Source: Leucoraja erinacea (Eukaryota). Taken from it: a stretch of 64,000 nucleotides of DNA. Location of the stretch: NCBI RefSeq assembly GCF_028641065.1, contig NC_073398.1, positions 18,724,001-18,788,000 of the forward strand, written 5' to 3'. Positions 6,041-55,007 of the stretch are shown here, piece by piece. A program made the translations under genes and the position numbers. A model generated the notes under the pieces. It was not told where the DNA came from. It saw only the letters and a list, made by a program, of their open reading frames with translations, and searched no databases. Position 1 is the first letter of the stretch. Each line of letters opens with the position of its first letter.

Positions 6041-6111
6041 TTCTGACTCTGCTACATCATTCATAGCATTCTATAGCATTCTGCTATATTCATCATGCCA
6101 TAACATGATGT

Positions 6112-6277: not shown

Positions 6278-6356
6278 TTCCTGTGATAAGGAAAACAGAG
6301 TGGCTAGTTGTCCACTGCAAGCTCTACAAACAGTTGTGTGATAATGATTTTTTTTC

Positions 6357-8599: not shown

Positions 8600-9530
8600 T
8601 ATGTACAGTTGTAGTTACTCTAGTGCAATTGTACAAGACACTGATGATGGCACTATTGGAATATTGAGTTTGGTCACCCTGCTTTTCCAAGGATATTATT
8701 AAGCAGGGAAAGCACAGGGAAGATTTACAAGGATGTTGGCAGGACTTGAGGGCCTGAACTATAAGGAGAGGCTAGGACTTTTTCCTTGGCGTGCAGGCGG
8801 TTGAAGGATGATATTTTAGATGTGTATAAAATCACGAGGGGGATAGGATAAATGCATGGAGTTTTTATTTACCCAGAGTTGGTGGAACAAGAACCAGAGG
8901 ACAGAGGTTTAAGGCAAAAGGAGAAAGATTTAATAGAAACCTGAGGGGCACCTTTTTCACTCAGTGGGTGGTGGGTATATGGAACACGCTGTCAGAGGAG
9001 GTAGTTGAGGCAGGTACTATAATAACATTTAACGGACACGGACAGATAGAGTTTGGAGTCATAGTGTGGAAACAGGCCCTTCGGCCCAACTTGTCCACAC
9101 CGGCCAATATGTCCCAGCTACACTAGTCCCACCTGCATGTGTTTGGTCCATATCCCTCCAAACCTGTCCTATCCATGTGCCTGCCTAAATGTTGGGATAG
9201 TCCCTCCCTCAACTACCTACTGTGGCACCTTGTTCCATGCACCCACCACCCTTTATGTGAATAAGTTACCCCTCAGATTCCTATTAAATCTTTTCCCCTT
9301 CATCTTAAACCCATGTCCTCTGGTCTTCGATTCACCTACTCTGGACAAGAGATTCTGTGTATATACCCAATCTCTTCCTCTCATGATTTTATATACCTCA
9401 ATAAGATACATGGATAGAAATGCTTTAGAAGTATATGGGTCAAATGCTGCAAACAGGACTATCATAGATAAGGCATCTTGGTTGGCATAGACATGTTGGG
9501 CCAAAGGCCCAGTTTCCATGCTGAATAAAT
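8600..9530 (+). mobile_element. Degraded CR1 3' region interrupted by an antisense CR1 fragment (9051-9405)
   Basis: Plus-strand CR1 ORF2 end and UTR on both sides of the insert. The insert encodes LLSRVGESKTRGHGFKMKGKRFNRNLRGNLFT on the minus strand. Confidence 0.75.
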
Positions 9531-9792
9531 CTATAATTATATAACTTTAAGGACAAATGAGCTAAACTATTAAATAAATACTATAACAGAAGTGACACTT
9601 GTTTTATTTTATAGTTTAAAATAAAGAAGATGTTTTGACTAGGACTGCAAAATTCTAAATAAGAAACTATGAAAGTCTTTAGAATTTGAGCTTTAGGATT
9701 CTTTCAGGAGGTTATTGATATGTAATGATTTTTATTCAAAAGCAATCCTACAAATGATTGGTCACAGATTATCTGCGATGGTTATTGGCATA

Positions 9793-9931
9793 CAAAATGC
9801 TAGAGTGACAGCGGGTCAGGCAGCATCTCTGGCGATGCTTCTCTCCGGAGATGCTGCCTGACCCGCTGAGTTACTCCAGCATTTTGTGTCTACCGTTGAT
9901 TTAAACCAGCATCTGCAGTTCTTTCTTACAC
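9793..9931. mobile_element. Fold-back Penelope pLTR mini-element
   Basis: Inverted arms (cagcgggtcaggcagcatc / gatgctgcctgacccgctg) and a perfect 15-bp TSD ATGGTTATTGGCATA at 9778-9792 and 9932-9946. Confidence 0.85.
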
Positions 9932-13677: not shown

Positions 13678-15089
13678 TAATAGACAATAGACAATAGGTG
13701 CAGGAGTAGGCCATTCGGCCCCACGAGCCAGCATGCCATCATCCACAATCAGTACCCAGTTCCTGCCTTCTCCCCAAATCCCCTGACACTACTGTCTTTA
13801 ACAGCTCTATCTAGCTCTCTCTTGAAAGTATCCAGAGAACAGGCCTCCACCACCCTCTGAGGCAAAGAATTCCACAGACTCACAACTCTGTGAGAAAAAG
13901 TGTTTCCTCGTCTCTGTTCTAAATGGCTTACCCCTTATTCTTCAACTGTGGCCCCTGGTTCTGGACTCCCCCAACATCAGGTACATGTTTCCTGCCTCTA
14001 GCGTGACCAAACCCTGAATAATCTTATATGTTTCAATAAGATCCCTTCTAAACTCCAGAGTATACAAGCCCAGCTGCTCCATTCTCTCAGCATATGACAG
14101 TCCCGCCATCCCGGGAATTAACCTTGTAAACCTACACTGCAATCCCTCAATTGCAAAAATGTCCTTCCTCAAATTAGGGACCCAAAACTGCACACAATAC
14201 GCCAGGTGTGGTCTCACTAGGGCCCTATACAACTGCAGAAGGATCTCTTTGCTCCTATATTCAACTCCTCATTATAAAAGCCAACATGCCACTCATTTTC
14301 TTCACTGCCTGCTGTACCTACATGCTTACTTTCATTGACTGATGAGCAAGAACCCCCAAATCCTATTGTACTTCCCCTTTTACCAACTTGACACCATTTA
14401 GATAGTAATCTGCCTTCCTGTTTTTGCTACCAAAGTGGATAACCTCACATTCATCCACATTAAACTGCATCTGCCATGCATCTGCCCACTCACCCAACCT
14501 GTCCAATTCACCCTGCATTCTCATAGCATTCTCCTCACAGTTCACACTGCCACCCAGCTTTGTGTCATCTGCAAATTTTCTATTGTTACTTTGAATCCCT
14601 TCATCTAATTCATTGATGTATATTGTAAATAGCTGTGGTCCCAGCACCGAGCATTGTGGTACCCCACTAATCACTGCCTGCCATTCTGAAAGGGACCCGT
14701 TAATCCCTACACTTTGTCTCCTGTCTGCCAACCAATTTTCTATCCATTTCAGCACTACCCCCAATACCATGTGCCCTAATTTTGCCCACTAATCTCCTAT
14801 GTGGGACCTTATCAAATGCTTTCTGAAAGTCCAGGTCCACTACATCCACTGGCTCTCCCTTGCCCATTTTCCTAGTTACATCCTCAAAAAATTCCAGAAG
14901 ATTAGTCAAGCATGATTTCCCCTTCGTAAATCCACTCGGACCGATCCTGTTACTGCTATCCAAATGTGCCGCTATTTCATCTTTTATAATTGACTCCAGC
15001 ATCTTCCCCACCACCGACGTCAGGCTAACTGGTCTATAATTCCCTGTTTTCTCTCTCCCGACTTTCTTAAAAAGTGAGATAACATTAGC
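13678..15089 (-). mobile_element. CR1 LINE, 5'-truncated, frameshifted RT
   Basis: ORF pieces with GFTKGKSCLTNLLEFF, DFQKAFDKVPH, GVPQCSVLGP, KFADDTKL and YRALVRPHL; (CAATAGA)n tail. Confidence 0.92.
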
Positions 15090-15104
15090 AGGGATTAGCA
15101 GGCA

Positions 15105-15330: not shown

Positions 15331-16107
15331 CATCCAGAGGAGCTGACCATTAAGGTAATTGACCCAAAATGTAATATCCTCTGAAATAAAATAATTTGAA
15401 AATATTCAGTGCAGGCCTGGAGATAGAAAAATATTGATGTTTCATCAAAATCGAACTTTGAATGCTTTTGAACATTCCTCATATTCAAAAACTATTCAAT
15501 TGAATGAAATTATTAAAACATCAATTACTAAGTAGTTTAGAAATTGAAGGTAAAACAATCAAAATGTTTTAAACAGTTAAATACATTTAACTAAACTCAA
15601 TTAATGTAAGAATCAATCCTTTCTTGCAGCTGTTCCTACCTATTGCCAGTTCAATTGGCTAAAAGGTTGCTTAGTGTTCCAAAATAAAATTATCCTCTGA
15701 TTGCGCAAACTTTGATTTACGGTATAGATGAAGACGAATACTTTCTATATACCTTTACAAGTAGTGTTTTAATCCCAAGAACAAAATTATTCAAATTCTA
15801 TAATTTACCTTTTCTGTCTGTTGCAATGATTTCTAGACTGGATGATTGATTCATTCATTGCAAAATTATTGATACCTGGACGATTCTGTAAAGCTAAATC
15901 ACCCAGAAGAGAAAAAAAACCACGATTCTAGGAAGATGATGAAAGTGATATGATTTCTAATCACAGAATCACTTATTTCTCTTCTATACTCATTAAAAGC
16001 TGGAGAAAAGAATGCATGACATATTTCCTTTTACATAGTTAAATTGTAGGCATTAAAATACTCAGTTTTGCATCCAAAAGCTATTTTTTTATTTAACTGA
16101 TTGAAAA

Positions 16108-17347
16108 CTGCAGATGAACACAGCACAGAAACTAACCCTGCTGGGCCTCAACACCACCCTGTGTCACTGGATCTTGGACTTTCTGACAGAGAGACCGCAG
16201 TCAGTCCGTGTTGGCAAGAACACTTCAGGCTCGATCACGCTGAGCACCGGCTCCCCTCAAGGCTGTGTGCTCAGCCCGCTGTTGTTCACACTGCTCACAC
16301 ATGACTGTGCTGCCAGATTCAGGGACAATAAAATCATAAAGTTCGCGGACGACACTACAGTGGTGGGACTCATCAGTGGAGATGACGAAACAAGGTACAG
16401 GGAGGAAGTAGAACAACTGGTGGACTGGTGCGGCAAAAATAACCTGGAATTGAATGTCGAAAAAACTAAGGAGATGGTTGTCGACTTCAGGAGGGCGCAG
16501 CCAGAGCATACACCGCTCAACATTAGTGGCACTGCAGTGGAGAGAGTGGAGAGCATAAAGTTCCTCGGTGTGCAGATAACGGACAACCTCACCTGGTCCA
16601 GGAACACCACTGGGACCGTCAAACGGGCCCATCAGCGACTGCACTTCCTGAGGAAACTAAAACAGGCCTCACTCCCCACCAACATCCTCAGGACTTTATA
16701 CAGGTTGGTGGAGCGGTTGGTGGAGTCTGTACTCACGTACTGCATCAATACGTGGTACTGCACCTGCAACTGCTCGGACAGGAAGGCTCTGCAGAGGGTA
16801 GTGAGGGGAGCAGAGAGGATTATTGGCGTCTCCCTACCCTCGGTACAAGAACTGTTCCAGAGCCGCTGTCTGAAGAAAGCACAGAGAATTGCCAAGGACA
16901 AACTGCACCCCCTCCACACACACCTGGATCTCTTGCCATCAGGCAAGAGATATCGAAGCATCAAAGCCCGGACTACGAGGCTGCTAAACAGCTTCCTACC
17001 ACAGGCGGTGAGGCTGCTAAACAGTCACTCTGCACGCACAGTCACTTGACTTGACTCTGCGGCTGGCACGGACACTTTAATAACTGGCACTGGCCACTTA
17101 AATCAGCGGCCCCGGACATTTTTTTATGATTGGTTTACTGTATTTTAACATTGTGTTTTTTACCTGATTTTAACTATTTATTCTGTTCCATCAGGGACTG
17201 GATTGTTTTTTTAGTGTTATTATGTGAGAAGTGTTTTAAATTTCATGTGCGAGGCTCCGCTATTCACTGGGAAACGTCTTTTCATTTTGCACTGTACTTG
17301 TTGCTTGCAAGATGAAAATAAAGGTTGATTGATTGATTGATTGATTG
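16108..17347 (+). mobile_element. Rex1/Babar-clade LINE, 5'-truncated, young
   Basis: Open RT C-terminal frame, 3' UTR, AATAAA plus (ATTG)n tail; TSD TGATTGAAAA at 16098-16107 and 17342-17351. Confidence 0.9.
16114..17049 (+). CDS. Reverse transcriptase C-terminal half of the Rex1/Babar LINE (311 aa, truncated, not a host gene)
   Basis: [77 protein letters not shown]. Confidence 0.85.
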
Positions 17348-17369
17348 AAAATGATACGAAATCTTATAT

Positions 17370-17560
17370 AGGCACAAAATGCTGGAGTAACTCAGCGAAC
17401 AGGCAGCATCTCTGGAGAGAACGAATGGGTGATGTTTGGGTCAAGACCCTTCTTACGTCACCATTCCATCTCTCTAGCGATGCTGCCTGTCCCGCTGAGT
17501 TACTCCAGTTTTTTGTGTCTATCTTCGGTTTAAAGCAGCATCTGCAGTTCCTTCCAACAC
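17370..17560. mobile_element. Fold-back Penelope pLTR mini-element
   Basis: Inverted arms meet at the hammerhead region (~17450). TSD GAAATCTTATAT (17358-17369) / GAAATCCTATAT (17563-17574). Confidence 0.8.
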
Positions 17561-17671
17561 CTGAAATCCTATATTGTGGCTAAAAGATTCAAAGATGTTA
17601 TGATGCATAAAGTCTGAAAACAGGCGATGATATGTAGTAGTATTCAGTTTTATTTTTGACAGGGACTTGTA

Positions 17672-17766
17672 TGAAGAAGGGTCTCAACACAAAATGTCAC
17701 CCATTCCTTCTATCCAGAGATGCTGCCTGTCCCTCTGAGTTATTCCAGCATTTTGTGTCCATCTTC
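17672..17766 (+). mobile_element. Penelope pLTR fragment with decayed hammerhead
   Basis: tgaagaagggtctcaacacaaaatgtcacccattcc..., flanked by CTTGTAT repeats. Confidence 0.7.
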
Positions 17767-19808: not shown

Positions 19809-19975
19809 TGTGTAGGAAGGAACTGCAGATGCTGATTTACACCAAAGATAGACACAAAAAGCTGGAGTAACTCGGCGTCTGTGGAGAAAAGGAATAGGTG
19901 ACATTTTGGGTCAAGACCCTTCTTCAGACTGCGAGTCAGGAGAGAGGGTAACAAGAGGTAAGAAAAGGTACAGAA
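19809..19975 (-). mobile_element. Penelope pLTR fragment inside an old antisense CR1
   Basis: The minus strand reads agtCTGAAGAagggtcttgacccAAAAtgtcac, a hammerhead core with CpG-type decay. Confidence 0.75.
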
Positions 19976-20117: not shown

Positions 20118-20992
20118 TGCTATGAGAATGCAGGGTGACTTGGACAGGTTGGGTGAGTGGGCAGATGCAGTTTAATGTGGATAAATGTGAGGTTATGCAC
20201 TTTGGTAGCAAAACCAGGAAGGCAGATTACTATCTAAATGGTGTCAACTTGGGAAAAGGCCAAGTACAACGGGATCTTGTTCATCAGTCAATGAAAGTAA
20301 GCATGCAGGTACAGCAGGCAGTGAAGAAAGTGAATGACATGTTGGCCTTTATAACAAGAGGAGTTGAGTATAGGTGCAAAGAGGTCCTTCTGCAGCTGTA
20401 CAGGGCCCTATCGAGACCACACCTGGAGTATTGTGTGCAGTTTTGTTCCCCTAATTTGATGAAGGACATGCTTGCTATTGAGGGATTGCAGCGTAGGTTT
20501 ACAAGGTTAATTCCCGGGATGGCGGGACTGTCATATGCTGAGAGAATGGAGCAGCTGGGCTTGTATACTCTGGAGTTTAGAAGGATGAGAGGGAATCTTA
20601 TTGAAACATATAAGATTATTAAGGGTTTAGACACGCTAAAGGCAGGAAACATGTTCCCAATGTTGAGGGAGTTCAGAACCAGGGGCCACAGTTTAAGAAT
20701 AAGGGGTAAGCCATTTAGAACGGAGACAAGGAAACACTTTTTCTCACGGAGAGTTGTGAGTTTGTGGAATTCTCTGCCTCAGAGGTCGGTGGAGGCCGGT
20801 TCTCTGGATACTTTCAAGGGAGAGCTAGATAGGGCTCTTAAAGATAGCAGAGTCATGGGATATGGGGAAAAGGCAGGAACGGGGTACTGATTGGGAATGA
20901 TCAGCCATGATCACATTGAATGGTGGTGCTGGCTTGAAGGACCGAATGACCTACTGCACCTATTGTCGATTGTCTATTGTCTATTGTCTATT
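20118..20992 (+). mobile_element. CR1 LINE 3' part, young (251-aa frame)
   Basis: QFNVDKCEVMHFG, YRALSRPHLEYCVQF, RTRGHSLRI, VVSLWNSLP; (ATTGTCT)n tail. Same subfamily as 13678-15089. Confidence 0.92.
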
Positions 20993-22204: not shown

Positions 22205-22415
22205 AAAATTGAAGATAGACACAAAATGCAGAAGTAACTCAGCGGGACCGGCAGCATCTCCGGAGAGAAGCAATGGGTGACGTTTCGGGTCAAGGCCCTT
22301 CTTTTCAGACTGAAGAAGAGTTTGAAGAAGGGTTTTGGCCCAAAATGTTGCCTATTTCCTTCGCTCCATAGATGCTGCTGCACCCACTGAGTTTCTCCAG
22401 CATTTTTGTGTACCT
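22205..22415. mobile_element. Fold-back Penelope pLTR element built from two pLTR subtypes
   Basis: The antisense arm is the GAAACGTCACCCATT subtype. The sense arm is the ...GTTGCCTATTTCCTTCGCTCCATAG subtype. They join at ttcagactgaagaag. Confidence 0.75.
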
Positions 22416-23257: not shown

Positions 23258-24225
23258 TTATATTACAGAACTTAAATTTGTTTCTGCAAATGTTCCAGGC
23301 TCAATGACTGGTTTGTTATAAAGTCGTTGGAAAGTTTCCTCCGTTGACCATCCTGCTGTCTTGAGGATTTGGTCCATAGGAATGTCCAACTTCATAGCTG
23401 CCGATGTAGCTGCACCCCTGGTGGAGTGAGATTTAAAAATGTTAGTGTCTACTCCAGCCTTTATTAGGACCCTTTTTAGCCATCTAGAGATGGTCTGGAC
23501 TGTCACTGTTTTGAGTGGCTGTTTGTAGCTGATTAAAGTGACATTTCTTTCCCTCTGATGATCTTAGTATACTCCATATATAATAGTAAGTGTGTTACAA
23601 TACAGAGACGACCATCTGTCCGGTAGGCCCTGAATTCTGTTTTTAGGCCTGCTGACCCCTGGCTGTTCTGTTTGACTATTTCATTGATGTGAAAAGTTAA
23701 ATTTCCAGATGAAATAATCATATTGGCCAGCCTTAGTTTCTGTAGTGACTGGACCCTTTGTGCCGTGACCAAGGCCATCAGCATGACTGTTTTCATAGTC
23801 AGTTTCTGTAGGGACAGAGCTGTAGCTGGAGACCAGTTTCTTAACATGGTCAGTACAATGCTCACATCCCATATTTGGGAGTACCTGGTTCTTGGGGATT
23901 AACATTAAAATGCCCCTCATGAGTTTGGTTACCAGGGTGTGTCCCAACAGAATGCCGCTCTGTTCCTTGCCACAGGTATGTTGACAGAGCACTTCTGGCA
24001 CAGTTAGTGGCACTATGACTGAGCCTCTCATCGTAATGGAGGCTTGCCAAGAATTCCAGAACAGACGGGATGTTCATAGATCTGTGGGTGATGTTTATTG
24101 TTGTGACAGTACTTCCCATTTCTTGAAGACACCAAGTACTGTTTTTTGGTGGACTGGCTGTGGGCCGCTGAAATAATATCCACTGTTTGGTCCGTCAGTC
24201 CCAGGTGTAGTAGAGGTGCTTTCAA
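23258..24225 (-). pseudogene. DIRS tyrosine recombinase (frameshifted)
   Basis: STKKQY, SVLEFLASL..ARSALS, KLTMKTVMLMALVTAQRVQSL (catalytic R), TISRWLK..AGVDTNIFKSHSTRGAATS (HxxR), AGWS..TFQRLY. Confidence 0.88.
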
Positions 24226-24641
24226 CTCTATAAATTAATAGGTTTATATAATTATGACATGGGTAACTACCCCTTGTTGCGGGAAGAACCAGTAAATTAG
24301 GTCTATGATGGATGGTGATGCATGGTTCTAAAACCATGTCGTGTATCACCGGGACCCATGATTGAGTAGGCCAATCGGGTACTATCAAAATATCAGACGC
24401 GGAGTCTACTGTATATTCCTAAATACCCGACTGATGAGGCAGAAGGAGGGAATGCATAAATAAATAATCCCCCAATGCAGCGAAAATGCATCTGTAGCCA
24501 CTGCCCCAGGTTCTGGTTCCCATGAACATAATTCGATAACTGGTGAGAGCATGGATGCGAATAGGTCAATATCTGGTGTTCCATACCATGCTGTAATGTC
24601 AGCAATACATTTTTTATCCAACAGCCATTCAGTGTTTTCAT
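24095..24641 (-). pseudogene. DIRS DNA N6-adenine methyltransferase-like domain (frameshifted)
   Basis: WYGTPDIDLFAS, DAFSLHW, IYAFPP and IVPDWPTQSW motifs. Confidence 0.8.
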
Positions 24642-24649
24642 AGAATTAG

Positions 24650-25827
24650 CGTGACCTGGTGTCTGCCACTAATTCAGTTTACCTGGCAAGTAGGTAGCTG
24701 ATATCCAAATATCTCTCTGGATACACTATTGCCAAATTGTGTTGGCCATATTGTCACATGATGTCGATATGTTTCCACCCATATGGTTGATATATGCTAC
24801 CACGGTGGTGTTGTCAATTTGTAGTCTAACATGCTGGTGATATAACCCAGAACAATATAACTTAAAGCCATGGAATGCACTCAACATTCCCAGGTAGTTT
24901 ATGCCCAGTGTTTGTAATAATGATGCCTCCTGTGCATTCCATCTCCGCCACAGCTGGAGATGGAATTGGTAGCATCCCATCCAAGTGCACTGGCATCAGT
25001 ATGTAGTTCCATAGACGGGTAGCTGATAATGTTTGGATCGCAACAATGCCTAATGTTATGTTTTCCCCATTTTAGTTCCATTGTGGCCTCTGTTGGTAAC
25101 TTCATTGGTCTGTCAGAATGACTCCCATAATTTTTCAGTGCACAAATGTTTGCCCTCTGTAATTTTTGATAATGTAAAGGTCCGATTTGTGTGGCTGGAA
25201 ATGCAGCCACTAAAATGCCAATTATTCTTGCTACCAGTCTGATGGATGGTTTTGTTTTGCTGCAAGCCTCCATTAAGGCTGTAACCTTTTCTTTCGGCAA
25301 AGTCACTGACATGTGAACTGTGTTAAGGGTGAACCGCAGATGATCCATTGTGTTAAATAACATCTGTGATCACCTCTAATGGGTACTGTATAGTAAGCAT
25401 TTTTTAATACGATGCTTGCCATGTAGTAACCTAGGAATCAATTGTTTAGCAGTAACAAAGGTTCCCATCTAGTAATGAATATAAAGTACGAAAGTATTCA
25501 AATTAGTCAAATCTATGATGATGTGGCAACCACCATCTATTTTATGATAAAGATTTTGGACACGGATTCCTGTGATTCGTGTTGCATATCCTCCATTACT
25601 CCTTTTTTATAAAGCCACTGTAGTTCAGTATGCGCTTTTGATTTTTTTTCTTTGCCTGTAAGCACAAACATTCGGTTCGGTACATGCTGAACTGGAGGAT
25701 TATGTTTTGTATAAATTCTATGGTATAACCCTATACATCTGAAAATATGAGTGTCAGTAGTTAATTTATTCCATGCATCCAGATAGAATTGCAATCTCAC
25801 ACCAACCTCGTAAGGAACCAGACCCAC
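24650..25827 (-). pseudogene. DIRS reverse transcriptase/RNase H (frameshifted, internally deleted)
   Basis: GVRLQFYLDAW, DGGCHIIIDLTNLN, YMASIVLKNAYYTVPI, LHTDASALGW, HVRLQIDNTTVVAYINHMGG. No YLDD-type catalytic segment visible. Confidence 0.85.
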
Positions 25828-25899
25828 CTTCCTCCATGGTTACTATTAGTAGGTTTGTTACTTTTTCGGCATCCTCCGTGGACGTTGAGGTGCCGGTGT

Positions 25900-27290
25900 C
25901 TGGATCTGTAGTTGGGTCGGTGTTGAGGGTTAGCGCATTCCCCAAGAAGTAGTTTTTAGACGTTGCTTTAATGAGCCCCAGGGTTTTACCCTCTTTGTCA
26001 AGTTCTTTTACCTGTTTTGATAAGTTGCCTCAAAATAGTAATCTTGGTGGTTTGGAGGTTCCAGGTTTGCATAGGCCTGCAAATTAGGGTCTAAAGCTGG
26101 TTGGATGGCACTTCTTCCTAATGCTGTTTACTCGTATTGGTAGTTGCAAAATAAAGCCAGTGCATCCTGGTGATCTTGTGTCATGTCTTTTTTGTTTATT
26201 GTGCGGGCGAAACCCGTAATTCCCGCTGTTAGGATTTTCAGAACTTTCTGTTGTTTCAAGTCCCTGGCCCTGCCATGTTTTCAAATACACTGGTTAACAC
26301 TGGGAACATTCAGTGTTTTGCAGTTCCCTGATGGTAAGTGTCTTCCAATAGGTTTTCTTGCACCCCATGTGCACTAGGGGTATGTTCTGCACCCCTCTTC
26401 AGGTTCAGCCCAGAATTGACCCCCTATACTCCCCTCTGATGAGGGAGAAACACTGTGCAGCCCTACAAGAGGTACTGCTGTAGGACTTACTAGCTGCCCC
26501 CTGTGACTAGTCTCCATCTCCCGGAGCCTGCCACTTACCTGCTCCAACAGCCGCTCCAGCTGGCTCCGATGCTCTCGGGCACTGGCCACCTCATGGTCAC
26601 TGGCCGTCGCGGCTGCTCCTGAAGCCGCTCCTGCTCCAGCTCCTGCAGTCAGCCCAGGATGGACCCTCCATGCTCCCCTCTGATGAGGGAGAACTCTGTG
26701 CAGCCCCACAAGAGGTACTGCTGTGGGGCGTACTAACTGCCCACTGTGGCTAGCCTCCATCTCCCGTATTTCCTCCAGCAGCCACTCCAACTGGCTCTTA
26801 TGCTCTCGGGCATAGGCCACTCGCGGCTGCTGCTGATCCTGCAGCCGCTCCAACCGGCTCCAATGCTCACGGGCACTGGCCGTCGCGGCTGCTTGAAGCT
26901 GTTCCTCCTGCAGCCGCTCCAACCGGCTCTAACGCTCACGGGCACTGGCCATCGCGGCTGCTTTGTTCCCCACTCCCAGCCGCTCCAACCGGCTCCAATG
27001 CGCACGGGCACTGGCCGCTCGCAGCTGCTCCTAAAGCCGATCCAACCGGCCCCAATGCGCACAGGCACTGGCCGCTCGTGGCTATTCAGAGTCGGACTCA
27101 TCGGAGTCAACGACTCTGTTGGTTTTTTGCTTCGTTCTACCGCCCGGCCATGGCCGGTGCGGGAGCGAAGTCGGGCACAGCTGTTCCCATTAAGGGAGAT
27201 TGGCGTGCCGTTGGCCACTGCTGCCGGCTGCCCGCAACTCCACGGTTCTCCCCCGCCAGCTTTTCCGCAGCCTTCGTGGATCTGGCTCAT
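25900..27290 (-). pseudogene. DIRS gag-like ORF1 remnant with tandem coding repeats
   Basis: Lies 5' of RT. Repeated (A)REH(W/R/K)S(R/Q)LERL units, and GNLSKQVKELDKEGKTLGLIKA near its end. Confidence 0.55.
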
Positions 27291-29506: not shown

Positions 29507-29773
29507 GGGCGACAGTGGTGCAGCGGTAGCGTTACTGCCTTACAGCACCAGAGACCTGTGTTTGATCGTGACTATGGCTGCTTTGCTGTACGGAGTTTGT
29601 ACGTTCACCCCATGACCCCCATGGGTTTTCTCCACAATCTTCGGTTTCCTCCCACACTCCAAAGATACAGATTTGTAGCTTAATTGGCTTGGTATAATTG
29701 TAAATTGTCCTTAGTATACGTACTATAGTGTAAGTGTGTGGGAATTGCTGGTCAGCGTGAGAACAGAGGGCCA
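29507..29773 (+). mobile_element. HE1-type V-SINE interrupted by an antisense Penelope pLTR fragment (29774-30022)
   Basis: SINE head and core as at 10186. The pLTR follows, then a residual taaactaaa tail at ~30025. Confidence 0.8.
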
Positions 29774-30222
29774 CAAAATTCAGGAGTAACTCAGCTGTTC
29801 AGGCAGCATCTCTGGAGAGAAGGAATGTGACATTTCAGGTCGAGTCCCTTCTTCGGATTGGGAGTAGAGGGAAAGGGAAATGATAGATATAGACAATGAT
29901 GTAGAGAGATATAGAACAAATGAATGAAATATATGCAAAATAGTTACAATGATAAACAAAACAGGCCATTGTTAGCTGTTTGCCAGGTGAGAAGGAGAAG
30001 CTGGTACAACTTGGGTGGGGGAGTTAAACTAAATAAGTGACATGATTAATTCTTCAATTAAATCCTACAAATATTGGTTGGTTCATAGACTTTGATTTAT
30101 TTTCTTCTGCAACAAAACTAATGATGAAGATCAGTGAGCAGGTGACCAGATATCTTGAGAGAGGAGATGATATGCTTTAGGCCTTGATGAGGAGTCCGGT
30201 TAAATATATATAACAAACTGAC

Positions 30223-30316
30223 AATCTGAAGAAGGGTCTCGACAAGAAACGTCACCTATTCCTTTTCTCCAGAGATGCTACCTGACCCGCTGAGTTACTC
30301 CAGCTTTTTGTGTCTA
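30223..30316 (+). mobile_element. Penelope pLTR fragment with hammerhead core
   Basis: CTGAAGA-agggtctcgacaa-GAAA-cGTC at 30226-30253; stem II partly mutated. Confidence 0.8.
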
Positions 30317-31129
30317 ACATTAAGAGATACTGCGTCAAAAGTGTCAGGTAACAACCATCTCCAACAACAAAACCTTTGGCATTGAATAATATTACCATCG
30401 CTGAATCCTCCTCCACCACTGAGGCCACCATTGCCCTGAAATTCAACAAGACCATAAATACTGTCACAGCAAGAGAAGATCTATTTATGGGTAGCGGACA
30501 GGCCCATGAGTTAAAATTCTCCACTGCGGCATGTCATGTTTGAAGATATTAGACGGGAACTCGCTCAAATTAATTGTAGGTTGTTTGAAGGAAAAGGAAT
30601 TTTCATAAAGTGGGATGTTTTAAAAAGTGTGCTGACAAGACTCCAGGCCAAGTGTGCTGACAAGACTCCTGTTCCTGTTAGAGTGAAGGGCAAGGCAGGT
30701 GGGCATAAAGAAGCACAATGTGCTACAATAATTCAACAGTTCAGGCAGCATCTCTGGAGGAAAAGGTTAGGTGACATTTTGGGTCGAGATCCTTCTTCAG
30801 ACTCGAGGAAAAGTTTAGGAGATGTTTTGGTTCGGGATTCTTCTTCGGACATAAGGAAGCTTGGACGAGGAGAGAGATTGAGGCTTCGGTCAAGAATAAG
30901 AAGGAGGCATGGGGCAGGGATAAGCAGCCGAGATCACAATCTGCATGGTAATATGATACAATACGATACAATATAACTATTTATCCAAGGAGGTAAATTC
31001 TACTCTGGAGGGTTAGATTGCATGGGTTCCAAGGAGACGTAGATGGGGCATGTTGGCTGCATGGGCAATTTGGGCTGAAGGGTCTATATCCAAGCTGTAT
31101 GACTCTATGACTGTATGAGATCAGTAGCT

Positions 31130-33339: not shown

Positions 33340-33620
33340 AGACACTCAGTAATTCAGCAGAACAGGCAACATATCTGGAGAGAAGGAATGGTTGTCATTT
33401 TCAGGTTGAGACCTTTCTTCAGACTGAAAGTCACGGGAAAGGGAAATGAGAAATATGGACAATGATGTAGAAATATATAGAACAATGAATGAAAGATATG
33501 CAAAAAAGTAACGATGATAAAGGAAACAGGCCATAGTTAGCTGTTTTTTGGGAGAGAACGAGAAGCTGGTGTGACTTGCGTGGAGGAGGGAATGAGGGAG
33601 AGGGAATGCCGGGGTTACTG
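33340..33620 (-). mobile_element. Penelope pLTR/3' fragment
   Basis: Same sequence as 29774-30022 and 3636-3898. Confidence 0.75.
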
Positions 33621-35750: not shown

Positions 35751-36608
35751 GTGGACTGCACTTCTTCCCACACTGCTTCCTGTAAGGACTCCATCCCCTA
35801 CTCCCAATTCCTCCGTCTACGCCGCATCTGCTCCACGGATGAGGCGTTCCACACCAGGACATCTGAAATGTCCTCATTATTCAGGGAACGGGGGTTCCCC
35901 TCCTCCACCATAAATGAGGCTCGCACCAGGGTCTCTTCCATACCCCGCAACACTGCTCTCTCTCCCCATCCCCCCACTCGCAACAAGGGCCGAGTCCCCC
36001 TAGTCCTCACCTTTCACCCCACCAGCCGTCACATACAAAAAGTAATCCTCCGTCAGTTTCGCCACCTCCAACGTGACCCCACCACTTGCCACATCTTCCC
36101 ATCTCCCCCCATATCTGCCTTCCGCAAAGACCGCTTCCTCCATAACTCCCTTGTCAATTCTTCCCTTCCCTCTTGTACCACCCCCTCCCCGGGCACTTTC
36201 CGTTGCAACCGCAAGAGATGCAACACTTGTCCCTTTACCTCCCCCCTCGACTCCGTTCAAGGACCCAAGCAATCGTTCCAGGTGCGACAGAGGTTTACCA
36301 GCATCTCTTTCAACCTCATCTATTGCGTCCGCTGCTCTAGATGTCAGCAGATCTATATCGGTGAGACCAAGCGGAGGTTGGGCGATCGTTTCCCCGAACA
36401 CCTCCGCTCAGTCCGCAATAACCAAGCTGACCTCCCGGTGGCTCAGCACTTCAACTACCCCTCCCACTCCGTCTCCGACCTCTCTGTCCTGGGTCTCCTC
36501 CATGGCCACAGCGAGCAGCACCGGAAATTGGAGGAACAGCACCTCATATTCCGTTTGGGGAGTCTGCATCCTGGGGGCATGAACATCGAAATCTCCCAAT
36601 TTTGTTAG
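35751..36608 (+). CDS. Penelope RT thumb + Cys linker + GIY-YIG endonuclease (285 aa, 5'-truncated)
   Basis: SIPYSQFLRLRRICS, CNRKRCNTC linker, NLIYCVRCSRCQQIYIGETKRRLGDRFPEH, VAQHFN..SH, EEQHLIFRLGSLHPGGMN. Confidence 0.88.
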   Translation: MDCTSSHTASCKDSIPYSQFLRLRRICSTDEAFHTRTSEMSSLFRERGFPSSTINEARTRVSSIPRNTALSPHPPTRNKGRVPLVLTFHPTSRHIQKVILRQFRHLQRDPTTCHIFPSPPISAFRKDRFLHNSLVNSSLPSCTTPSPGTFRCNRKRCNTCPFTSPLDSVQGPKQSFQVRQRFTSISFNLIYCVRCSRCQQIYIGETKRRLGDRFPEHLRSVRNNQADLPVAQHFNYPSHSVSDLSVLGLLHGHSEQHRKLEEQHLIFRLGSLHPGGMNIEISQFC

Positions 36609-36721
36609 TCCTTGCTATCTCCTCCCCTTCCTCAGTCCTCCTGCTGTCTCCTCCCATCCCCCAGCCTTCGGGCTCCTCCTCCTTTTTCCTTTCTTGTCCC
36701 CGCCCACCCCCGCCCCCCATC

Positions 36722-36755
36722 AGTCTGAAGAAGGGTTTTGGCCCGAAACGTTGCT
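36722..36755 (+). ncRNA. Minimal type I hammerhead ribozyme motif in the Penelope pLTR
   Basis: CUGAAGA (36725-36731), an extra A, stem II GGGUU/GGCCC, GAAA (36745-36748), palindromic AACGUU in place of stem III, NUH = GUU. Stem I is only ~3 bp. Confidence 0.7.
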
Positions 36756-39499
36756 TATTTCCTTCGCTCCATAGATGCTGCTGCACCCGCTGAGTTTCTC
36801 CAGCTTTTTTGTGTAACCTTCAGAAATACTTAACTTTGTATGCCATGTTACAAAGACAAACAGAAATACATTTTGTTCAGAAACTTTAAGATTGGTTATT
36901 GATAATTTATTAAAAAAAACTATGACCCATATTGAGGTGGGGATACTTTAAAATTGTGCCATGGTGAAAATAAATTATTCCCAGACAGCACTTACATTCA
37001 TTTTCAAAAATTAATTTAATCAAAGGAACTTACATTATGGATTTGTGTCCAGCCCTATTAGTGGCAAACACACAAAAAAAGACAATTTATTAATATTAAT
37101 AATAATAATTAATGATAATATTTAATAATAGCAAAGATAATTTAAAGCTGTCATTTTGGATTCTGAGACCATAGAAGTCTTCGTTTTGTGCATGTTTAAC
37201 TTGTATTTGGAGCAGCACAACAAAACAATTTTGAGATGTTGTGCAAACCTAGCAAAGTTGTGGCGGCACCCAACTTATTTCCTCCTCCAGTTTGCTGGGT
37301 TTCGATTAGCTGTTTTTTGTTAAATCCCGATTGCTCTACCGCAACACATCGGCCCATTTTTGAAATTTAGGACATGAGTTTTCTACATCGTCAGTCATTT
37401 GATTCTGTGCTTCTGCCAGGAATCGGCTGCACATTTTAATTACTTCAGCAAAACACCTCTTTTGATTCAGAAGTACAGATGAGGAAGACCAATTGACCTA
37501 TATTAGCCCATCTATCAAATCCAATTAATCTCCTGTTTTAAATGAGGTACGTGCCAAAAAATAATTGTGATAATTAGTAATATTTGAAAGCAGAATGAAC
37601 TAGCCTGGAATATTTAAAGATCATTGAAAATAATGAAAGGGAGGTTCAAGAAACCAAAAACAAAGTATATCAGAACATAAGAAATAGGAGTAAAAGTAGG
37701 TCAATTTGTCCTTCAACCTGCTCCATCAGTCAATAACATCCTGGCTTGACTAATCTTGGTCTTCATTCTTCTTTTTTGTTCCCGTGCCATACCCCTTTGA
37801 CCCTCTTACACTTTAAATTCCTTCCAATTTCTGCCAATGTGTCCACCTCCACAGCCTCGAGGTTATAGGAACTGATCTGCACCTCCAGCTGGGCCGGAGT
37901 TCCAGAGCCCTGGCTGCAGGGTGCAAATTTGACCCGCCGAGCGGCCATGGAAGTCCTGATGAGATTGACATCGGCTGCCTCACCCGACCTAGGCGCTACA
38001 TTTTCGGGGGGACTTCCGTGGAGGGTGGGGGATTTCAAGTGTGCTTTCGTAATTTTTTCTGGATTAAAGAAGCTTTCAGACCAACAGTTGCCTGAAAATC
38101 GGTGGTGGACTTGTCGTAAGGGTACCTATAAATACTTATATCAGATGTAGCTCAACATTTTGACTTAAGCTTAGGACTCCAGAAGAGATGCGTTCAATAT
38201 CATCACATGCCCAACCCAATGTTAGCCTAACCATTCAAGACACTCCACTCCATGGGGAAGTAGCAAGCTATAGTCAGAGGGTGGCATTAATGTAATAAAG
38301 CACCAGCCTTCAAACTACAGTATTTCCAAATATAAATGACAAGCACTAATCAGTTTTGCAATTACAAGAACAGTAAACAAATCTGTGAAGGGAACAAGGT
38401 TTTAGCTCACAGTGGGAGATATGTTTAGGAAAAACATGACCATAAGACATTCTCTTGTGCATTGGCCAAATGTAATCATTCGAGCTTTGTAGATTCAACT
38501 ACATTGACTTGACATTAGACACCTTGAGCTAAGATATTTTACAACATTGTGAGATAGATGCATGAGTTATACCTCCAAGCCCAGAATGAATACATGGAAG
38601 GTTCTAGGTTAAATTTTGCCATGTGGCAAATCAAACATGGCCATGGACATATTTACCTGTCAATCAACACTGTGTTTTTTGTATAAAATAACCAACTTTT
38701 GCAGTATTGATATTGTAAAGCTTCTGCTGACAAAACCCAGACATCCAAAATATTATGATGTTAAAATAAGAAATGTTTAGAATAATGATGTGAACTACCT
38801 TCCCTCAACAAGGATGTTTATGTATTCCAAGTTGATCTGGCCAATTAAGACGTGCAACCATTATACATATATGATTCCATGGAACCATTTGTTCACACCC
38901 AAAATATTAAAGTAGGCTGTGCACTGTAGCTGTTATATTTTACTTGATCACCTGCTATTACTCTTGTACGTAAAATATATATATTTTCGAGTCAAAACTC
39001 AAAATCTATTAAGTTTTATATATATAAATATAAAACTTGATATATTTTGAGTTTGGGAAGATTCTTTTTCACCGGGTCTCCTTTGTGTGTTTGGTGGTGT
39101 CAACAAACGACCAGCGAGATCGGTGATCTGAAGTAACTCATTCAAGAGCAATACTTGAAACTAGTAATCACATACCTACATTGACCGCCACTGATGAAGA
39201 CAGTCATTTCAACCCACCTGCTTCTGTTGCATAATTCTACTTCCGCTACATCTCTCTACTCGTGATCACCTTTACTCGCAGTCTTTGAGGCCAGACTGAA
39301 CCCACATCCTTTCTGTACCTTTGTGTACCTTGGACTCACAAAACACATTAAAGCAAAGTCTTAACCAATTAGTAGTCAGTAAATCACAAACTGGCCGTTA
39401 CTACTTACTTCAAAACATCAGATTCACAACATAAACATTTTTGGGTTGACTATGTCGCTGCAGTTTAAGGCATCTTCACAGGTACCAATGATTTTTTTT

Positions 39500-43339: not shown

Positions 43340-44482
43340 CATAGGAACATAGAAACATAGAAAATAGGTGCAGGAGTAGGCCATTCGGCCCTTCGAGCCT
43401 GCACGGCCATTCAATATGATCATGGTTGATCATCCAACTCAGTATCCTGTACCTGCCTTCTCTCCATATTCCCTAATCACTTTAGCCACAAGGGCCACAT
43501 CTAACTCCCTCTTAAATATAGCCAATGAACTGTGGCCTCAACTACCTTCTGTGTCAGAGAATTCCACAGATTCACCACTCTCTGTGTGAAAAATGTTTTT
43601 CTCATCTCAGTCCTAAAAGACTTCCCCCTTATCCTTAAACTGTTACCTCTTGTTCTGGACTTCCCCAACATCGGGAACAATCTTCCTGCATCTAGCCTGT
43701 CCAACCCCTTAAGAATTTTGTAAGTTTCTATAAGATCCCCCCTCAATCTTCTACATTCTAGCAAATATACGCCGCGTCTATCCAGTCTTTCTTCATATGA
43801 AAGTCCTGTCATCCCAGGAATCAGTCTGGTGAACCTTCTCTGTACTCCCTCTATGGCAAAAATGTCTTTCCTCAGATTAGGAGACCAAAACTGTACACAA
43901 TACTCCAGGTGTGGCCTCACCAAGGCCCTGTACAACTGCAGTAGAACCTCCCTGCTCCTATACTCAAATCCTTTTGCTATGAATGCTAACATACCATTCG
44001 CTTTCTTCACTGCCTGGTGCACCTGCATGCCTACTTTCAATGACTGGTGTACCATGACACCCAGGTCTCGTTGCATCTCCCCTTTTCCTAATCGGCCACC
44101 ATTCAGATAATAGTCTACTTTCCTGTTCTTGCCACCAAAGTGGATAACCTCACATTTATCCACATTATACTGCATCTGCCATGCATTTGCCCACTCACCC
44201 AACCTATCCAAGTCACCTTGCAAGCCTCCTAGCATCCTCCTCACAGCTAACACTGCCCCCCAGCTCCGTGTCATACGCAAACTTGGAGATGTGGCATTCA
44301 ATTCCCTCGTCCAAATCATTAATATATATTGTAAATAGCTGGGGTCCCAGTACTGAGCCTTGCGGTACCCCACTAGTCACTGCCTGCCATTCTGAAAAGG
44401 ACCCGTTTACTCCTACTCTTTGCTTCCTGTCTGCCAGCCAGTTCTCTATACACATCAATACTGAACCCCCAATACCGGGTGC
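43340..44482 (-). mobile_element. CR1 (HER1-like) LINE, 5'-truncated, young
   Basis: [21 protein letters not shown] (catalytic FADD mutated), YRALVRPHLEYCVQFW; (CATAGAAA)n tail. Confidence 0.92.
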
Positions 44483-47849: not shown

Positions 47850-49418
47850 TAAGTAAGTAAGTAAGTAAGTAAGTATGTTTTTTGACCAAGTATTCACATA
47901 CAAGGAATTTGCCTTGGTGCTCCACCCACAAGTAACAACATGGTATACAGTGACAGTTATGAATAACTCAGAAAACACTAAACATTAATAATAATAAAAC
48001 ATTAATGATAAAACACCATTGATCAATCAGGCGAACCAACAAAATACCAGATCAAAGGGAGGCTACATATTTTTGGCTGTTGAGTAGAGCAACAGGTTAA
48101 AAACTGTTTTTATGTCTGGCTGTGGCAGCTTTGACAGTCCGGAGTCGCCTTCCAGAGGGAAGTGATTCGAAGAGTTTGTGGCCAGGGTGAGAGGGGTCGG
48201 AGATGATCTTGCCCGCTCGCTTGCTGGCCCTTGCAGTGTACAGCTCATCAATGGAGGGAAGGTTGCAGCCAATAACCTTCTCTGCTGATCGGACAATTCC
48301 AGGTGTTGTGCTTGGTGGCTGAGCCAAACCCAGACCATGATGGAGAAGGTGAGAACAGACTTTACGATGGCCGTGTAGAATTGGACCATCATTGCCTGTG
48401 GCAGATTGTGCTTCCTCAACTGCCGCAGGAAGTGCATCCCCTGTTGGGCCTTTTTGACTGTGGAGTCAATGGTAGCCCCCCACTAAAGATTATTGGAGAT
48501 GATGGTTCCCAGGAACTTAAAAGACTCCACAGACGTGACTGTGGTGTTGTTGATGGTGAGTGGGGTGAGGGGAGGGGAGCACTCCTAATATCTGCAATCA
48601 ATTCCACTGTCTTAAGAGCATTGAGCTCTGGGTTGTTGCGACAGCACCAGAACGCCAGCTGTGACACTTCCTGTCTGTAGGCAGATTCCTTCCCATCCTT
48701 CCCATCCTGGATCAGTCCAATCAGGGTTGTGTCGTCCGCAAACTTGAGAAGCTTGACAGAGGTGTCTGTGGAGGTGCAGTCATTGGTGTAGAGATAGCAG
48801 AGGAGAAGATAGAGTACGCAGCCTTGCGGTGCTCCTATGCTGAGTGTTTGCGGATCCGAGATGTGCTTTCCCAGCCTCACATGCTGCTTCCTGTCTGTCA
48901 GGAAGTTGGTGATTCACTGACAAAGGGGTTCAGACACAGTCAACTCGGAAAGTTTGGAGTGTTCTAGCTCTGGCACAATGGTGTTGAATGCAGAGCAAAA
49001 ATCAACAAACAGGATCCTCGAATCAGTCCCATGGCGGTCTAGGTGCTGTAGGATGAAGTGCAGGACCAGGTTGACTGCATCATCCACAGATCTATTGGCC
49101 CGATATGCAAACTGCAGAGGGTCCAGCAGGGAGTTTGTGATATTTTTCAGCTTGGCCAGCACAAGCCTTTCGAGTGTCTTCACATGACTACAGATGTCAG
49201 TGCGACAGGCCTGTAGTCATTAAGACAAACTTGCCTTTTTGGGTACAGGGACAATAGTGGAGACTTTGAAGCAGGCAGAGACAGTACATGTTTGCAGGGA
49301 CTGGTTAAAAATGTCTGTATAGTTCAGTGCCAGCTGTTTGACACAGAGCTTAAGAGTAGTGGGGGAAATATTGTCAGGTCCTGGAGATTTCCGGCTCTTT
49401 TGTCCTCTGAAAAGCCTG
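47850..49418 (-). mobile_element. Rex1/Babar-clade LINE, 5'-truncated, frameshifted RT
   Basis: KSPGPDNISP, LDPLQFAYRANRSVDDAV, FVDFCSAFNTI, GAPQGCVL, KFADDTTLIGLI, LPSGRRLR; (ACTT)n tail. Confidence 0.9.
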
Positions 49419-49890: not shown

Positions 49891-52736
49891 GCATAATTTC
49901 CTAATCTTCAGTCAAAACCATGCTTGTGCTGATTAAGAGTGACGTTTGTGAGAACCCTCTGGTGGTGCTAGGTCCAAGCATTGTGTATGTTTTTGCATTG
50001 GATGGGCCTGTACATCGGTTAACATAACCTATGGAAATTACAAGATTGGGCGTATAATCATATTCCACCTTACTGGTACAATTTACTGAACATTTTTAAT
50101 TATATTTCATGACAAAAAAAACAATGTTCAAACAGGTAGATTTTTTTCCTTTTACTTCATCATAGAAAATATTAAATCCATTCATTTAAATCCATTAATT
50201 CATATTCTAACTGTAGAATATGAATTAATGATAGCACTCCATAGCTGCCAATCTCAACACTTTCAATTATGGAGATTTATTTTGCATGTCACAACTATAT
50301 CTAGAAAAATCTTCACCAGGATAATGAAACTGCCAAGCAAACATTTACTTGTCACATTTCATTGTCCCTTTTATCAGTGAGCTGAAAGGCCTGTAATTAC
50401 TAGCATTTTCTTCTTCATATTCATGAAAAGCAGCTTCTTTGTTACTTGATCTGGCCTATTAAAGGCTACAAGGAATTATAAAGCCCTCAGAAAAGGATTT
50501 GAAGTTCAGCTGAAATGGTTCTCACCAGGTCCAAAGATCTGACTTTATAAACGGTTGCATGAAGAAAGGGCTCACTTTTCAGAGGTTTGCCTTTCATTGT
50601 TGCAATTCACGTTTAATGAATTGCCCTTGTACTTGCTGCCCTGCGATGGAAGGGAATTTCAACTAGGTGGCAGAAATCATCAGTCGGACTGAAGAAACAA
50701 TATTGACGAGGACTTCTCAGTTGAAAATTATAGGCAGAAAAGAATTGCGACAAACAACATAATAGAGGTTACATGTTTTTAGTTCAAAATTGAACTGCAT
50801 TTTTAAACACATTTTTGTCATAAGTGCAAATAGTATATTGTATTTATTTAGGATTCCATGGTAACTGTAATGACATTGTGATATTGTAAAACGGTGGGCA
50901 TTTTCACCAATCACCATTTAATGTAATTCTATTTGGAAATGTAAAACTAGAACCATAGCAAACATAGAACAATTACAATGTGTGAGGTTGGCACTAAATT
51001 CACCAAGCACGTGTTGTACATAAATAGCTACCCCACATATGGTAATCCCACCTTCCACACTGGGTCTTTAGCTCCATATGTCACTGCAGATTATATACAT
51101 ATCAGAACTTTTAAAAACAAAATAAGGTTTGCTGAATCCATCATCAGATGCCTCTACCACCTTTTTAAGCAGTGGGTTTCATACCTGAGCAGCCTTGGGG
51201 AAAAAATATTTTCCTTTATTTCCTCTCATCCTTCTACCGAAAGTCAATAGTCCTGTTTATTTGACCCCTAAGGTGAGCAACTTAGGTCCTTTCCAATTCA
51301 TCTGCCCTTATTCATAAACACGCCAATGAAGCCTTCCTGACTTCAAAGAAAACAACCTCAGCCGACCTGATGTTTTCACATACCTTATGTTTTCCTGTCA
51401 TAAATATTGTCTGAAACATTCTTTGCACAGTCTCTTGTGCAACATCCCCTACCATGTGGTGACCACAACTGTATACAATACTGGTGTACAACTATGGTTT
51501 AACTTCCTTAACCAACATATCCTGTGAAACCTGGTTAAAAGATTTGTTGAAATCCATGTCGACTACTTCATGCACCATTACTTTGATCATTTAAGAGAAA
51601 CAGTAAAAATCAATGTATTGTTTTATCTTCACTTGGAAGACCTCCTCTTTCATACGCTATGCTTTTACACCATTTTTTCTGATAAGATAGTTCATGCTGG
51701 GGTGTAGCTAACCGACTAGATTTTGCTGAGGGAAAATAACATTCAAATGGAAATACCATGAATATCATGTAAATTGTTCAACAATTTTGTGCAAAAGGAG
51801 TTTCTAATCAAATTATTCTTCAACAAATTTAACTTACAGGTTAATACACCAAAATATACTTCAGCATGCAGCCCATTATCCTTGTACTAATCTGAATTTG
51901 TTACCAAGGTATTGCCTTGGGTAATTAGAACCATAGAGTTATAAAGCACTAAAATAGGCTCTTTGGCCCATCACATCTTTGCTGAAAAAGATGCCTATCG
52001 AAGCTAATTCCATTTGCTCATATCTCACTAAACCTTTCCTATCCATGTATCTATGTCCGTTCAACATAGTCTCTGCCTTCGCTGGTAGCTTGTTCCACAT
52101 ATCCACCATCCTCCATTTCAGGCAGTTCATTCTACCTTTCATGGTAATAATTCCAAATACATTCATAATAATTATTCACTAACCTTGTCACCTTCTTTTT
52201 TGTTCCTTGATAGTAATAGATCTGTAACTAAGCCCTGCAATTGTGGATTGTAAATGCCATTAAATATGAACTCATGGCAGTTGAGATTACAGTAGACGAC
52301 TACAGAATTTTGACCCAGAGACCAGAACAAAGTGGTGGCTCAGGTATTGTAGTCTATGGTGAAGAATAGTGACCTCTGTTGATTTTGACAGAAGTTACCG
52401 TAAAAGATCAAGTGATGATATTGGCATAGAATTAATCTTTTCCAAGATCTGGAATCTGGTCTTAGAAGATCCATGGTGTACGACATCAATTACATTATTA
52501 AGCAGACTGAGCAACCAATTGCAGTGAAAAATCCTCAGAGACACCAGACCAAAAAACAAAATGTACACATTTCAACTCTCTTGTTGACATTTTACAAACA
52601 AAGAAATAAGGTACACATCAGATTAACCTGGATGCAATAAACAAGCACTATAAATGTTGTTTTAAAGGAGGTAGGGAATTTGGAAATGTTCATCTGCAGG
52701 CATGATAATATCATAGAGACTAATGGACTATTATAT

Positions 52737-54792: not shown

Positions 54793-55007
54793 TGTAGGAA
54801 GGAACTGTAGGTACTGGTTTAAACCTAGGATAGACACAAAAGCTGGAGTAACTCAGCGGGGCAAGCAGCATCTCTGGAGAGAAGGAATGGGTGACGTTTC
54901 GGGTCGACACCTAAGAAGGGTCTCAACCCGAAACGTCACCCACTCCTTCTCTCCCGAGATGCTGCCTGTCCTGCTGAGTCACTCCAGCTTTTTGTGTCCA
55001 TCTTCGA
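54793..55007. mobile_element. Fold-back Penelope pLTR mini-element, young
   Basis: Inverted arms of ~80 bp meet between two truncated hammerhead halves (gtgacgtttcgggtcga / aagaagggtctcaacccgaaacgtcac). Confidence 0.85.

Follow-up and report, generated by a model that had tools for sequence, protein, structure and literature searches.

Short copies of a hammerhead-bearing Penelope-like element in Leucoraja erinacea are probably run-off cDNAs of uncut element RNA

Introduction

Minimal hammerhead ribozymes (min-HHRs) are encoded in the pseudo-LTRs (pLTRs) of metazoan Penelope-like elements (PLEs), including Xena, Poseidon, and Neptune elements of fish (Cervera and De la Pena 2014, PMC4209133). 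They were found there not to cleave as single copies and to cleave little as dimers, and one of nine Xenopus dimers is reported in print to be cut. For PAc, a Poseidon PLE of Anolis, initiation is internal at two sites, and both strands are nicked and then extended; the substrate is RNA that has not been cut, the HHR cuts only with the protein, and insertion proceeds without need for cleavage (Frangieh et al. 2024, PMC11167929). Inverted-pLTR insertions have been described in two studies (Arkhipova et al. 2013, PMC3846280; Craig et al. 2021, PMC8557442), which also ascribe solo pLTRs to recombination or deletion, define a Cys linker as a PLE feature, and describe an initiator-like TCACT in rotifer pLTRs. 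Non-LTR retrozymes, which combine a PLE pLTR origin with a type I HHR and occur in a chondrichthyan, are defined as tandem repeats (Li et al., bioRxiv 10.64898/2026.07.22.740005). Already published are thus the pLTR hammerhead of PLEs, the dimer requirement, the tail, and the inverted copies.

Here, we describe a PLE and its copies in Leucoraja erinacea, starting from one window, the whole 64,000-nucleotide stretch of DNA that was analyzed (GCF_028641065.1, contig NC_073398.1, positions 18,724,001 to 18,788,000). The motif resembles metazoan min-HHRs in its pLTR location, its CUGANGA/GAAA core, the nucleotide separating positions 9 and 10.1, the G10.1-C11.1 pair, the palindromic 15.2-16.2, and its occurrence mostly as single dispersed copies (PMC4209133). 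It differs in a stem I of 2 to 3 bp compared with the typical 4 to 5 bp (a Drosophila virilis variant has 2 bp), in a stem II of 4 to 5 bp compared with 7 to 8 bp in Schistosoma, and in about 41,000 exact intact cores compared with 4,000 to 9,000 for coelacanth and Xenopus (PMC4209133). With PAc, it shares two 3′ end sites that define a 30- to 40-nt tail, a seemingly uncut template, a cut site free of RNA ends, and extension of both strands; in contrast, the ATG is found some 170 nt past +1 and downstream of the tail rather than inside stem II, and a Cys linker is present (PMC11167929).

Like the inverted-pLTR insertions of PMC3846280 and PMC8557442, the copies include a head-to-head copy, a tail on one arm, a target site duplication (TSD), and an initiator-like motif. 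However, their commonest product is a stub or palindrome of 100 to 250 nt without an open reading frame (ORF), and, unlike the solo pLTRs of those studies, they carry their own TSDs. In the parts of PMC11167929 covered here, PAc is not said to have 5′ ends piled up at the edge of the hammerhead, and no such pile-up was found in the portions of the PLE hammerhead literature surveyed; chondrichthyan examples may already be listed elsewhere. The copies form a large natural data set on the transposition mechanism, namely on where the RNA starts, whether it serves uncut as the template, and in what way inverted insertions originate.

Results and Discussion

The hammerhead motif lies at the 3′ end of a truncated insertion

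Read directly from the sequence, positions 36722 to 36755 of the window are AGU / CUGAAGA / A / GGGUU-UU-GGCCC / GAAA-CG-UU / GCU. The surrounding insertion, which spans 35752 to 36821 and is truncated at its 5′ end, comprises the following features.

35752-36608 (+): 5′-truncated ORF remnant of an endonuclease-bearing (EN+) PLE, with the end of the reverse transcriptase (RT) thumb, a Cys linker, a GIY-YIG endonuclease, and a TAG stop at 36606-36608, recognized from longer genomic copies
36204-36230 (+): C-x4-C-x2-C linker CNRKRCNTC between RT and EN in the translation, of the Neptune/Nematis type
36315-36422 (+): GIY-YIG motif region (PF01541, E = 0.0048; 17.6 bits, under the 22.6 cut-off)
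36609-36719 (+): pyrimidine-rich 3′ untranslated region, which is the upstream part of the pLTR and is missing in most short copies
36720-36724 (+): TCAGT, initiator-like by resemblance to the initiator consensus and to the TCACT of rotifer pLTRs; A36722 is numbered +1, most short copies begin here, and AGU doubles as the 5′ strand of stem I
36725-36752 (+): minimal type I hammerhead core, with CUGAAGA at 36725-36731, the extra A at 36732, stem II at 36733-36744, and GAAA at 36745-36748
Within 36725-36752 (+): loopless palindromic stem III ACGU at 36748-36751, with the predicted cut after U36752 (GUU)
36753-36755 (+): 3′ strand of stem I, a helix of 3 bp in the focal copy and of 2 bp in the commonest variants
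36756-36821 (+): remaining pLTR up to the first 3′ end cluster (+91 to +97); the focal copy is without the tail of about 36 nt

An earlier note, made from the sequence alone, had placed the hammerhead about 115 nt beyond the stop of the GIY-YIG ORF in a Penelope pLTR, and C3 indeed lies 116 nt past the TAG. The pLTR placement also held, except that the focal copy is the sole 3′ end of a truncated insertion and not one of two flanking pLTRs. No clear TSD was seen around it. Genomic copies are 93 to 98% identical from 35752 and extend upstream into the RT, which matched RVT_1 at E = 3.4e-7 (locus L032); the fixed 5′ end at 35752 that many loci seemed to have in common was rejected as an artefact of using the window copy as the query. 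The GIY-YIG matches had E values of 0.002 to 0.005, with scores that fall short of the cut-off, and a PDB sequence search with the element RT returned no matches.

Near-full copies follow the order pLTR, tail, ATG, long proline-rich N terminus, RT, linker, EN, and pLTR. In full elements, the core occupies +4 to +31, the tail runs to about +137, and the ATG stands at about +170; paired cores lie 3,832 to 4,194 nt apart in four loci (L081, L085, L087, and L088). The sampled long copies are frameshifted, with the layout of a single ORF in which the RT is followed by a C-terminal GIY-YIG domain. Inverted 5′ copies are common among them, and this trait of EN+ PLEs is accompanied by two others, partial tandems and an optional tail of 30 to 40 nt. 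The Cys-rich linker is a trait of the Neptune clade that is common to Nematis, and the only vertebrate PLEs in print are Neptune and Poseidon. The element is an EN+ Penelope-like retrotransposon, likely of the Neptune clade.

The core is conserved, and its stems are short

We have almost no doubt that the motif is a PLE min-HHR. The CUGANGA and GAAA boxes are present with an NUH triplet (GUU), and non-CpG core columns are 85 to 97% conserved among 147 random copies. The extra nucleotide between A9 and 10.1 is A in 98% of 103 copies, and the 10.1-11.1 pair is G-C in 12 and G-U in 2 of 16 rows. In the palindromic ACGU, the C is kept in 106 and the G in 110 of the 147 copies, with losses that are mostly CpG transitions. 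A random 800 kb of the genome held 33 motifs that combine core, stem II, and palindrome, compared with none in three shuffles. These features bear out the reading of the earlier note as a minimal type I hammerhead with a palindromic stem III in a PLE pLTR.

The helices are less clear-cut. Stem I has 2 bp in the common variants and 3 bp in the focal copy rather than 4 to 5 bp, and its third pair is unpaired in 13 of 16 rows. In stem II, 95% of cells are paired among 16 rows hand-picked from 116 distinct ones; three of the five pairs vary on one side, none varies on both, and the score of these hand-picked rows was equalled by 448 of 500 shuffles. The changes between subtypes are also one-sided (U-A to U-G and C-G to U-G), as they are at the first pair of stem I. 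The earlier expectation of a conserved CUGANGA/GAAA core with stem II covariation was thus borne out for the core, and for stem II only one-sided wobbles appeared. Rfam hammerhead models gave no match to the motif at E ≤ 5. No tRNA, 5S, or 7SL Rfam matches were found at the window copies, and weak Rfam miRNA matches in the window were traced to inverted pairs.

Predicted folds favor other structures. From +1 to +99, a rival helix of GAAGG with a downstream CCUUC is preferred, and forcing the hammerhead costs 4.3 kcal/mol; in L082 with its tail, the cost is 6.1 kcal/mol. The computed probability of stem II in these contexts is 0.02 and 0.001, respectively, and no partner that would lengthen stem I was found in the computed folds. 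Because stem III is loopless, activity needs a second copy, and the focal copy has no intact partner in the window. Between +50 and +120 of L082 (window 36771 to 36821 plus the tail), the tail is predicted to pair with AGAUGCUG in a long hairpin. This modeled hairpin brackets the first 3′ end cluster and is a candidate RT-binding structure.

The family is abundant and decays in part by CpG loss

A profile built from window copies gave 24 matches in the window, 12 of which form six head-to-head pairs. The eight further sites that the earlier note had listed are all homologous and, with the focal copy, make up 9 of the 24; only the focal copy, at 36725, has both core and stem II intact, and the listed sites other than 30226, 22278-22310, and 54913 carry substitutions. 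Copies other than the focal one include the following.

1453-1626: head-to-head pair of short copies, 12-bp TSD
3393-3492: head-to-head pair without the core, 11-bp TSD
9790-9896: head-to-head pair without the core, 15-bp TSD
17368-17526: head-to-head pair
17669-17765 (+): short GUC-type copy with a decayed core
19844-19931 (-): CpG-decayed GUC-type copy
22211-22415: head-to-head pair of a GUC-type arm (-), with a 2-nt core insertion at 22278-22310, and a decayed GUU-type arm (+)
29766-29857 (-): older GUC-type copy with a pyrimidine tract upstream
30225-30320 (+): short GUC-type copy with an intact core and a broken stem II
30711-30803 (-): CpG-decayed GUC-type copy
33348-33425 (-): older diverged copy with a pyrimidine tract upstream
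54827-55005: head-to-head pair with CUG missing in both arms

Because the arms at 22211-22415 belong to different subtypes, this pair stems either from one insertion nested in another or from two distinct template RNAs. Outside the family profile matches, at 50673-50700, a CTGATGA on the minus strand overlaps a CTGAAGA on the plus strand around a short palindrome, probably by chance or as a very old relative.

Over 800 kb of random genome, sampled as 80 evenly spaced stretches of 10 kb, the profile found 309 matches, which extrapolates to about 850,000 copies in 2.19 Gb, most of them short. The suggestion that a very common SINE-sized repeat is a ribozyme-bearing pLTR was supported. A 38-mer downstream of the cut site has 46,046 exact genomic matches, the young core has 26,774, and the core with both stems, over the main subtypes, has 41,239; the reversed-pattern control gave none for either core pattern. 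Intact copies, described earlier as few, thus number in the tens of thousands. Both subtypes that had been proposed (GUC and GUU) are present, within at least three variants defined by position 17+1.1 (CA in 102, UG in 22, and CG in 11 of 147 copies).

All 11 core letters are kept in 51 of the 147 near-full random copies. G12 has changed to A in 42 of the 96 broken copies (42/147) and is the sole change in 18, and mean conservation is 0.74 in CpG columns compared with 0.94 in non-CpG core columns. CpG decay of the core, which the earlier note had described as CGAAACG to CAAAATG, is accordingly real, yet it accounts for less than half of the losses, and the full CAAAATG form occurs in only 8 of the 147.

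Copies begin at the edge of the hammerhead and end at two sites

We collected 79 young copies by means of the downstream 38-mer, a procedure blind to the 5′ side (L043-050 and L101-210); the first 1.8 Mb of a single contig supplied 30 of the source loci, and two rows appear to be duplicates (L198 and L201). The 5′ ends of 48 copies fall between -3 and +15, 9 of them ahead of the proposed +1 (at -1 to -3), and are scattered over about 18 nt. Another 10, mostly inverted junctions, lie between +19 and about +45; 9 lie between -4 and -279; and 11 reach the end of the reference. None of the 79 lies at the predicted cut site (+29 to +35, site +32). A separate count of 68 copies gave a similar distribution. 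In a set of 68 copies of all subtypes without linked upstream sequence, A(+1) and the next G are kept in 76%, the two preceding bases in about 53%, and conservation has fallen to the background level by -5. Across the genome, AGTCTG is preceded by a base other than C in 2,354 exact copies, which marks a break before A+1, compared with 1,253 that have a base other than T one position further up. A cap-derived G before A+1 was not apparent in a hand count of the first 100 of each match list (G:A 33:41, compared with 20:25 at a control position; Fisher P = 1.0).

The 3′ ends form two clusters, at about +91 to +97 and +131 to +138, which lie 60 to 105 nt past the predicted cut site. A TSD of at least 8 bp flanks 25 of 40 noninverted short copies, compared with 2.6% in cross-pair controls, and TSD copies often show 1 to 3 nt of microhomology or filler. 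Among the 309 random hits, 102 form 51 head-to-head pairs, compared with 2 tail-to-tail and 7 tandem neighbors; the tandem units that define non-LTR retrozymes are thus rare (bioRxiv 10.64898/2026.07.22.740005). In the 38 pairs with both 3′ ends, one tail is present in 28, none was detected in 10, and no pair has two, with about five two-tailed pairs expected if the arms were independent.

Several loci depart from this pattern. One near-full tandem element (L071; G000:C12, also L084) has an upstream pLTR that starts exactly at the cut site, +32, the only one of eight tandem elements to do so. Three inverted junctions (L015:2745(-), L203, and L196) have an antisense arm that ends on the 3′ side of the cut site and could thereby extend stem I of the intact sense core into a long helix; stem III would still need a partner. 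Locus L145 (5030 to 5141) carries three hammerhead cores about 38 nt apart, a single retrozyme-like tandem micro-array that could fold as a dimer in cis.

Short copies as probable run-off products of uncut RNA

Since copies begin just before the motif and not at the predicted cut site, the RNA was likely reverse transcribed uncut. We hold it very probable that the element RNA is used uncut as the template, and probable that the short copies are run-off cDNAs of its 5′ end, with the motif as a minimal type I core in an EN+ PLE pLTR. A transcription start at TCAGT is favored with less assurance. The run-off reading draws on the element architecture, the two 3′ clusters, the 5′ boundary, copies that cross the cut site, the TSDs, and the one-tailed pairs. 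It also agrees with the favored rival fold, with the RNA reads that break off at +1/+2, and with the findings for PAc (PMC11167929). Under this mechanism, transcription would start at the TCAGT of the upstream pLTR, and the RT would prime internally at one of two sites, as PAc does. Priming in the 5′ pLTR would run off the RNA start and yield stubs of 95 to 135 nt; priming in the 3′ pLTR would yield ordinary 5′-truncated copies like the focal one; and head-to-head pairs with one arm tailed would result when both nicked target strands are primed. Cutting by the ribozyme would require a dimer or the element protein, and dispersed copies would remain passive, eroding through CpG deamination.

More tentatively, the roughly 850,000 stubs could be the footprint of the PLE reaction itself, in which a strong-stop-like cDNA extends from an internal priming site to the RNA 5′ end at the first base of the hammerhead and both target strands are primed at the two different sites. 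If so, a hammerhead at the 5′ extremity of the mRNA would be a protein-switched element that is held off by the rival fold, and a cut would take away just a 31-nt leader and free no unit-length RNA.

The main rival to a start site at TCAGT is that the boundary reflects RT stalling or trimming at the C-rich tract just upstream (G-rich in the cDNA), with the stubs being extreme 5′ truncations primed in the 3′ pLTR. The tract adjoins the boundary, and the spread of the ends and the missing cap-derived G fit such stalling. However, only 3 of the 79 ends lie inside the tract (-7 to -14), most stop before reaching it, and older subtypes with different upstream sequence have the same boundary, all of which makes stalling unlikely.

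At somewhat longer odds, the sequence may be maintained for a role as internal promoter or RT-binding structure, with its catalysis lost. The one-sided variation, the 2-bp stem I, and the stable hairpin modeled between +50 and the tail are consistent with this, as is the conservation of non-CpG core columns, which barely exceeds that of downstream ones (0.94 versus 0.91). Against it, subtypes that differ at neighboring positions retain all the catalytic letters, the nucleotide added after A9, the G10.1-C11.1 pair, and the palindrome.

We consider it decidedly improbable that the ribozyme cuts the element RNA in vivo, as a two-pLTR dimer or with protein assistance, and that cut or circularized RNA is the template. 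A model of this kind has been published for PLE hammerheads (PMC4209133), the PAc HHR does cut with protein (PMC11167929), all min-HHR features are present, tandem elements hold two cores, and L071 starts at the cut site. Yet none of the 79 young copies starts there, and most of them span the site; the 3′ ends lie well past it; and PAc insertion is independent of cleavage (PMC11167929). A circular template would span the site too but leaves the +1 boundary unexplained. Cutting of an RNA fraction that does not serve as the template is compatible with the run-off reading.

The discrete length, the TSDs, and the very high copy number would fit a SINE or retrozyme that amplifies independently from a promoter of its own, a reading that we regard as very unlikely: diagnostic variants and both 3′ end clusters are common to short and long copies, head-to-head pairs far outnumber tandems, and copies that begin at or after the putative start are without upstream promoter sequence.

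RNA reads cross the motif

We compared three raw-read runs (X21, X23, and X24; organisms A and E, possibly other species) and one contig set with a tandem junction. Reads from these related, possibly other-species runs cover the motif deeply, and the poly(A) run shows equal depth there in either direction (X21 depth of 2303 and 2462). No pile-up of read ends was found anywhere on the tandem junction in these libraries, which are fragmented and ill-suited to true ends. At +1/+2, 317 and 289 reads depart into unrelated sequence, with agreement of 0.41 and 0.33. Given fragmentation and uncertain strandedness, the reads are weak evidence that read-through RNA holds the uncut motif and do not speak for the absence of cutting. 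Over the ORF-end region (L082:5600-6900), the three runs are skewed in direction, about 2:1 in X21, and the short-copy region is balanced in X21.

An acceptor-like tract and CAG precede the core. Intron removal at such a splice acceptor, giving a longer stem I, found no support among the joints listed (15 of 21 and 15 of 130), none of which was GT-AG.

The earlier note had also proposed that intact dispersed copies cleave host transcripts that read through them, which would bring some 41,000 cores to bear on gene expression. The evidence points against this highly improbable idea: despite the 41,239 exact intact cores, their abundance in RNA reads, and the extended stem I at some inverted junctions (L015 and L203), stem I is mostly 2 to 3 bp, stem III is not loop-closed and needs a partner, the rival fold wins by 4 to 6 kcal/mol with a stem II probability of 0.001 to 0.02, single min-HHRs stay uncut and dimers cut little (PMC4209133), eight of nine Xenopus dimers are inactive in print, one-third of copies adjoin their own antisense, and X21 depth over the motif is equal both ways (library strandedness uncertain) with no pile-up of ends.

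Other elements in the window

The window holds other mobile-element remnants. On the minus strand, 23533-26928 contains RNase H-like and recombinase-like pieces, presumably DIRS-type by their motifs, with a better preserved relative at L032 7980-9901 (-); Pfam gave no confirming match to the window fragments. The segment 45783-46771 resembles a PIF/Harbinger transposase by its GAVDGKH motif, and Pfam gave no match to it. LINE RT fragments occur at 14363-15104, 16105-17049, 20126-20890, 43501-44376, and 48063-48913; the last three are assigned by resemblance only, and RVT_1 matches confirm 14703-15104 and 16105-17046.
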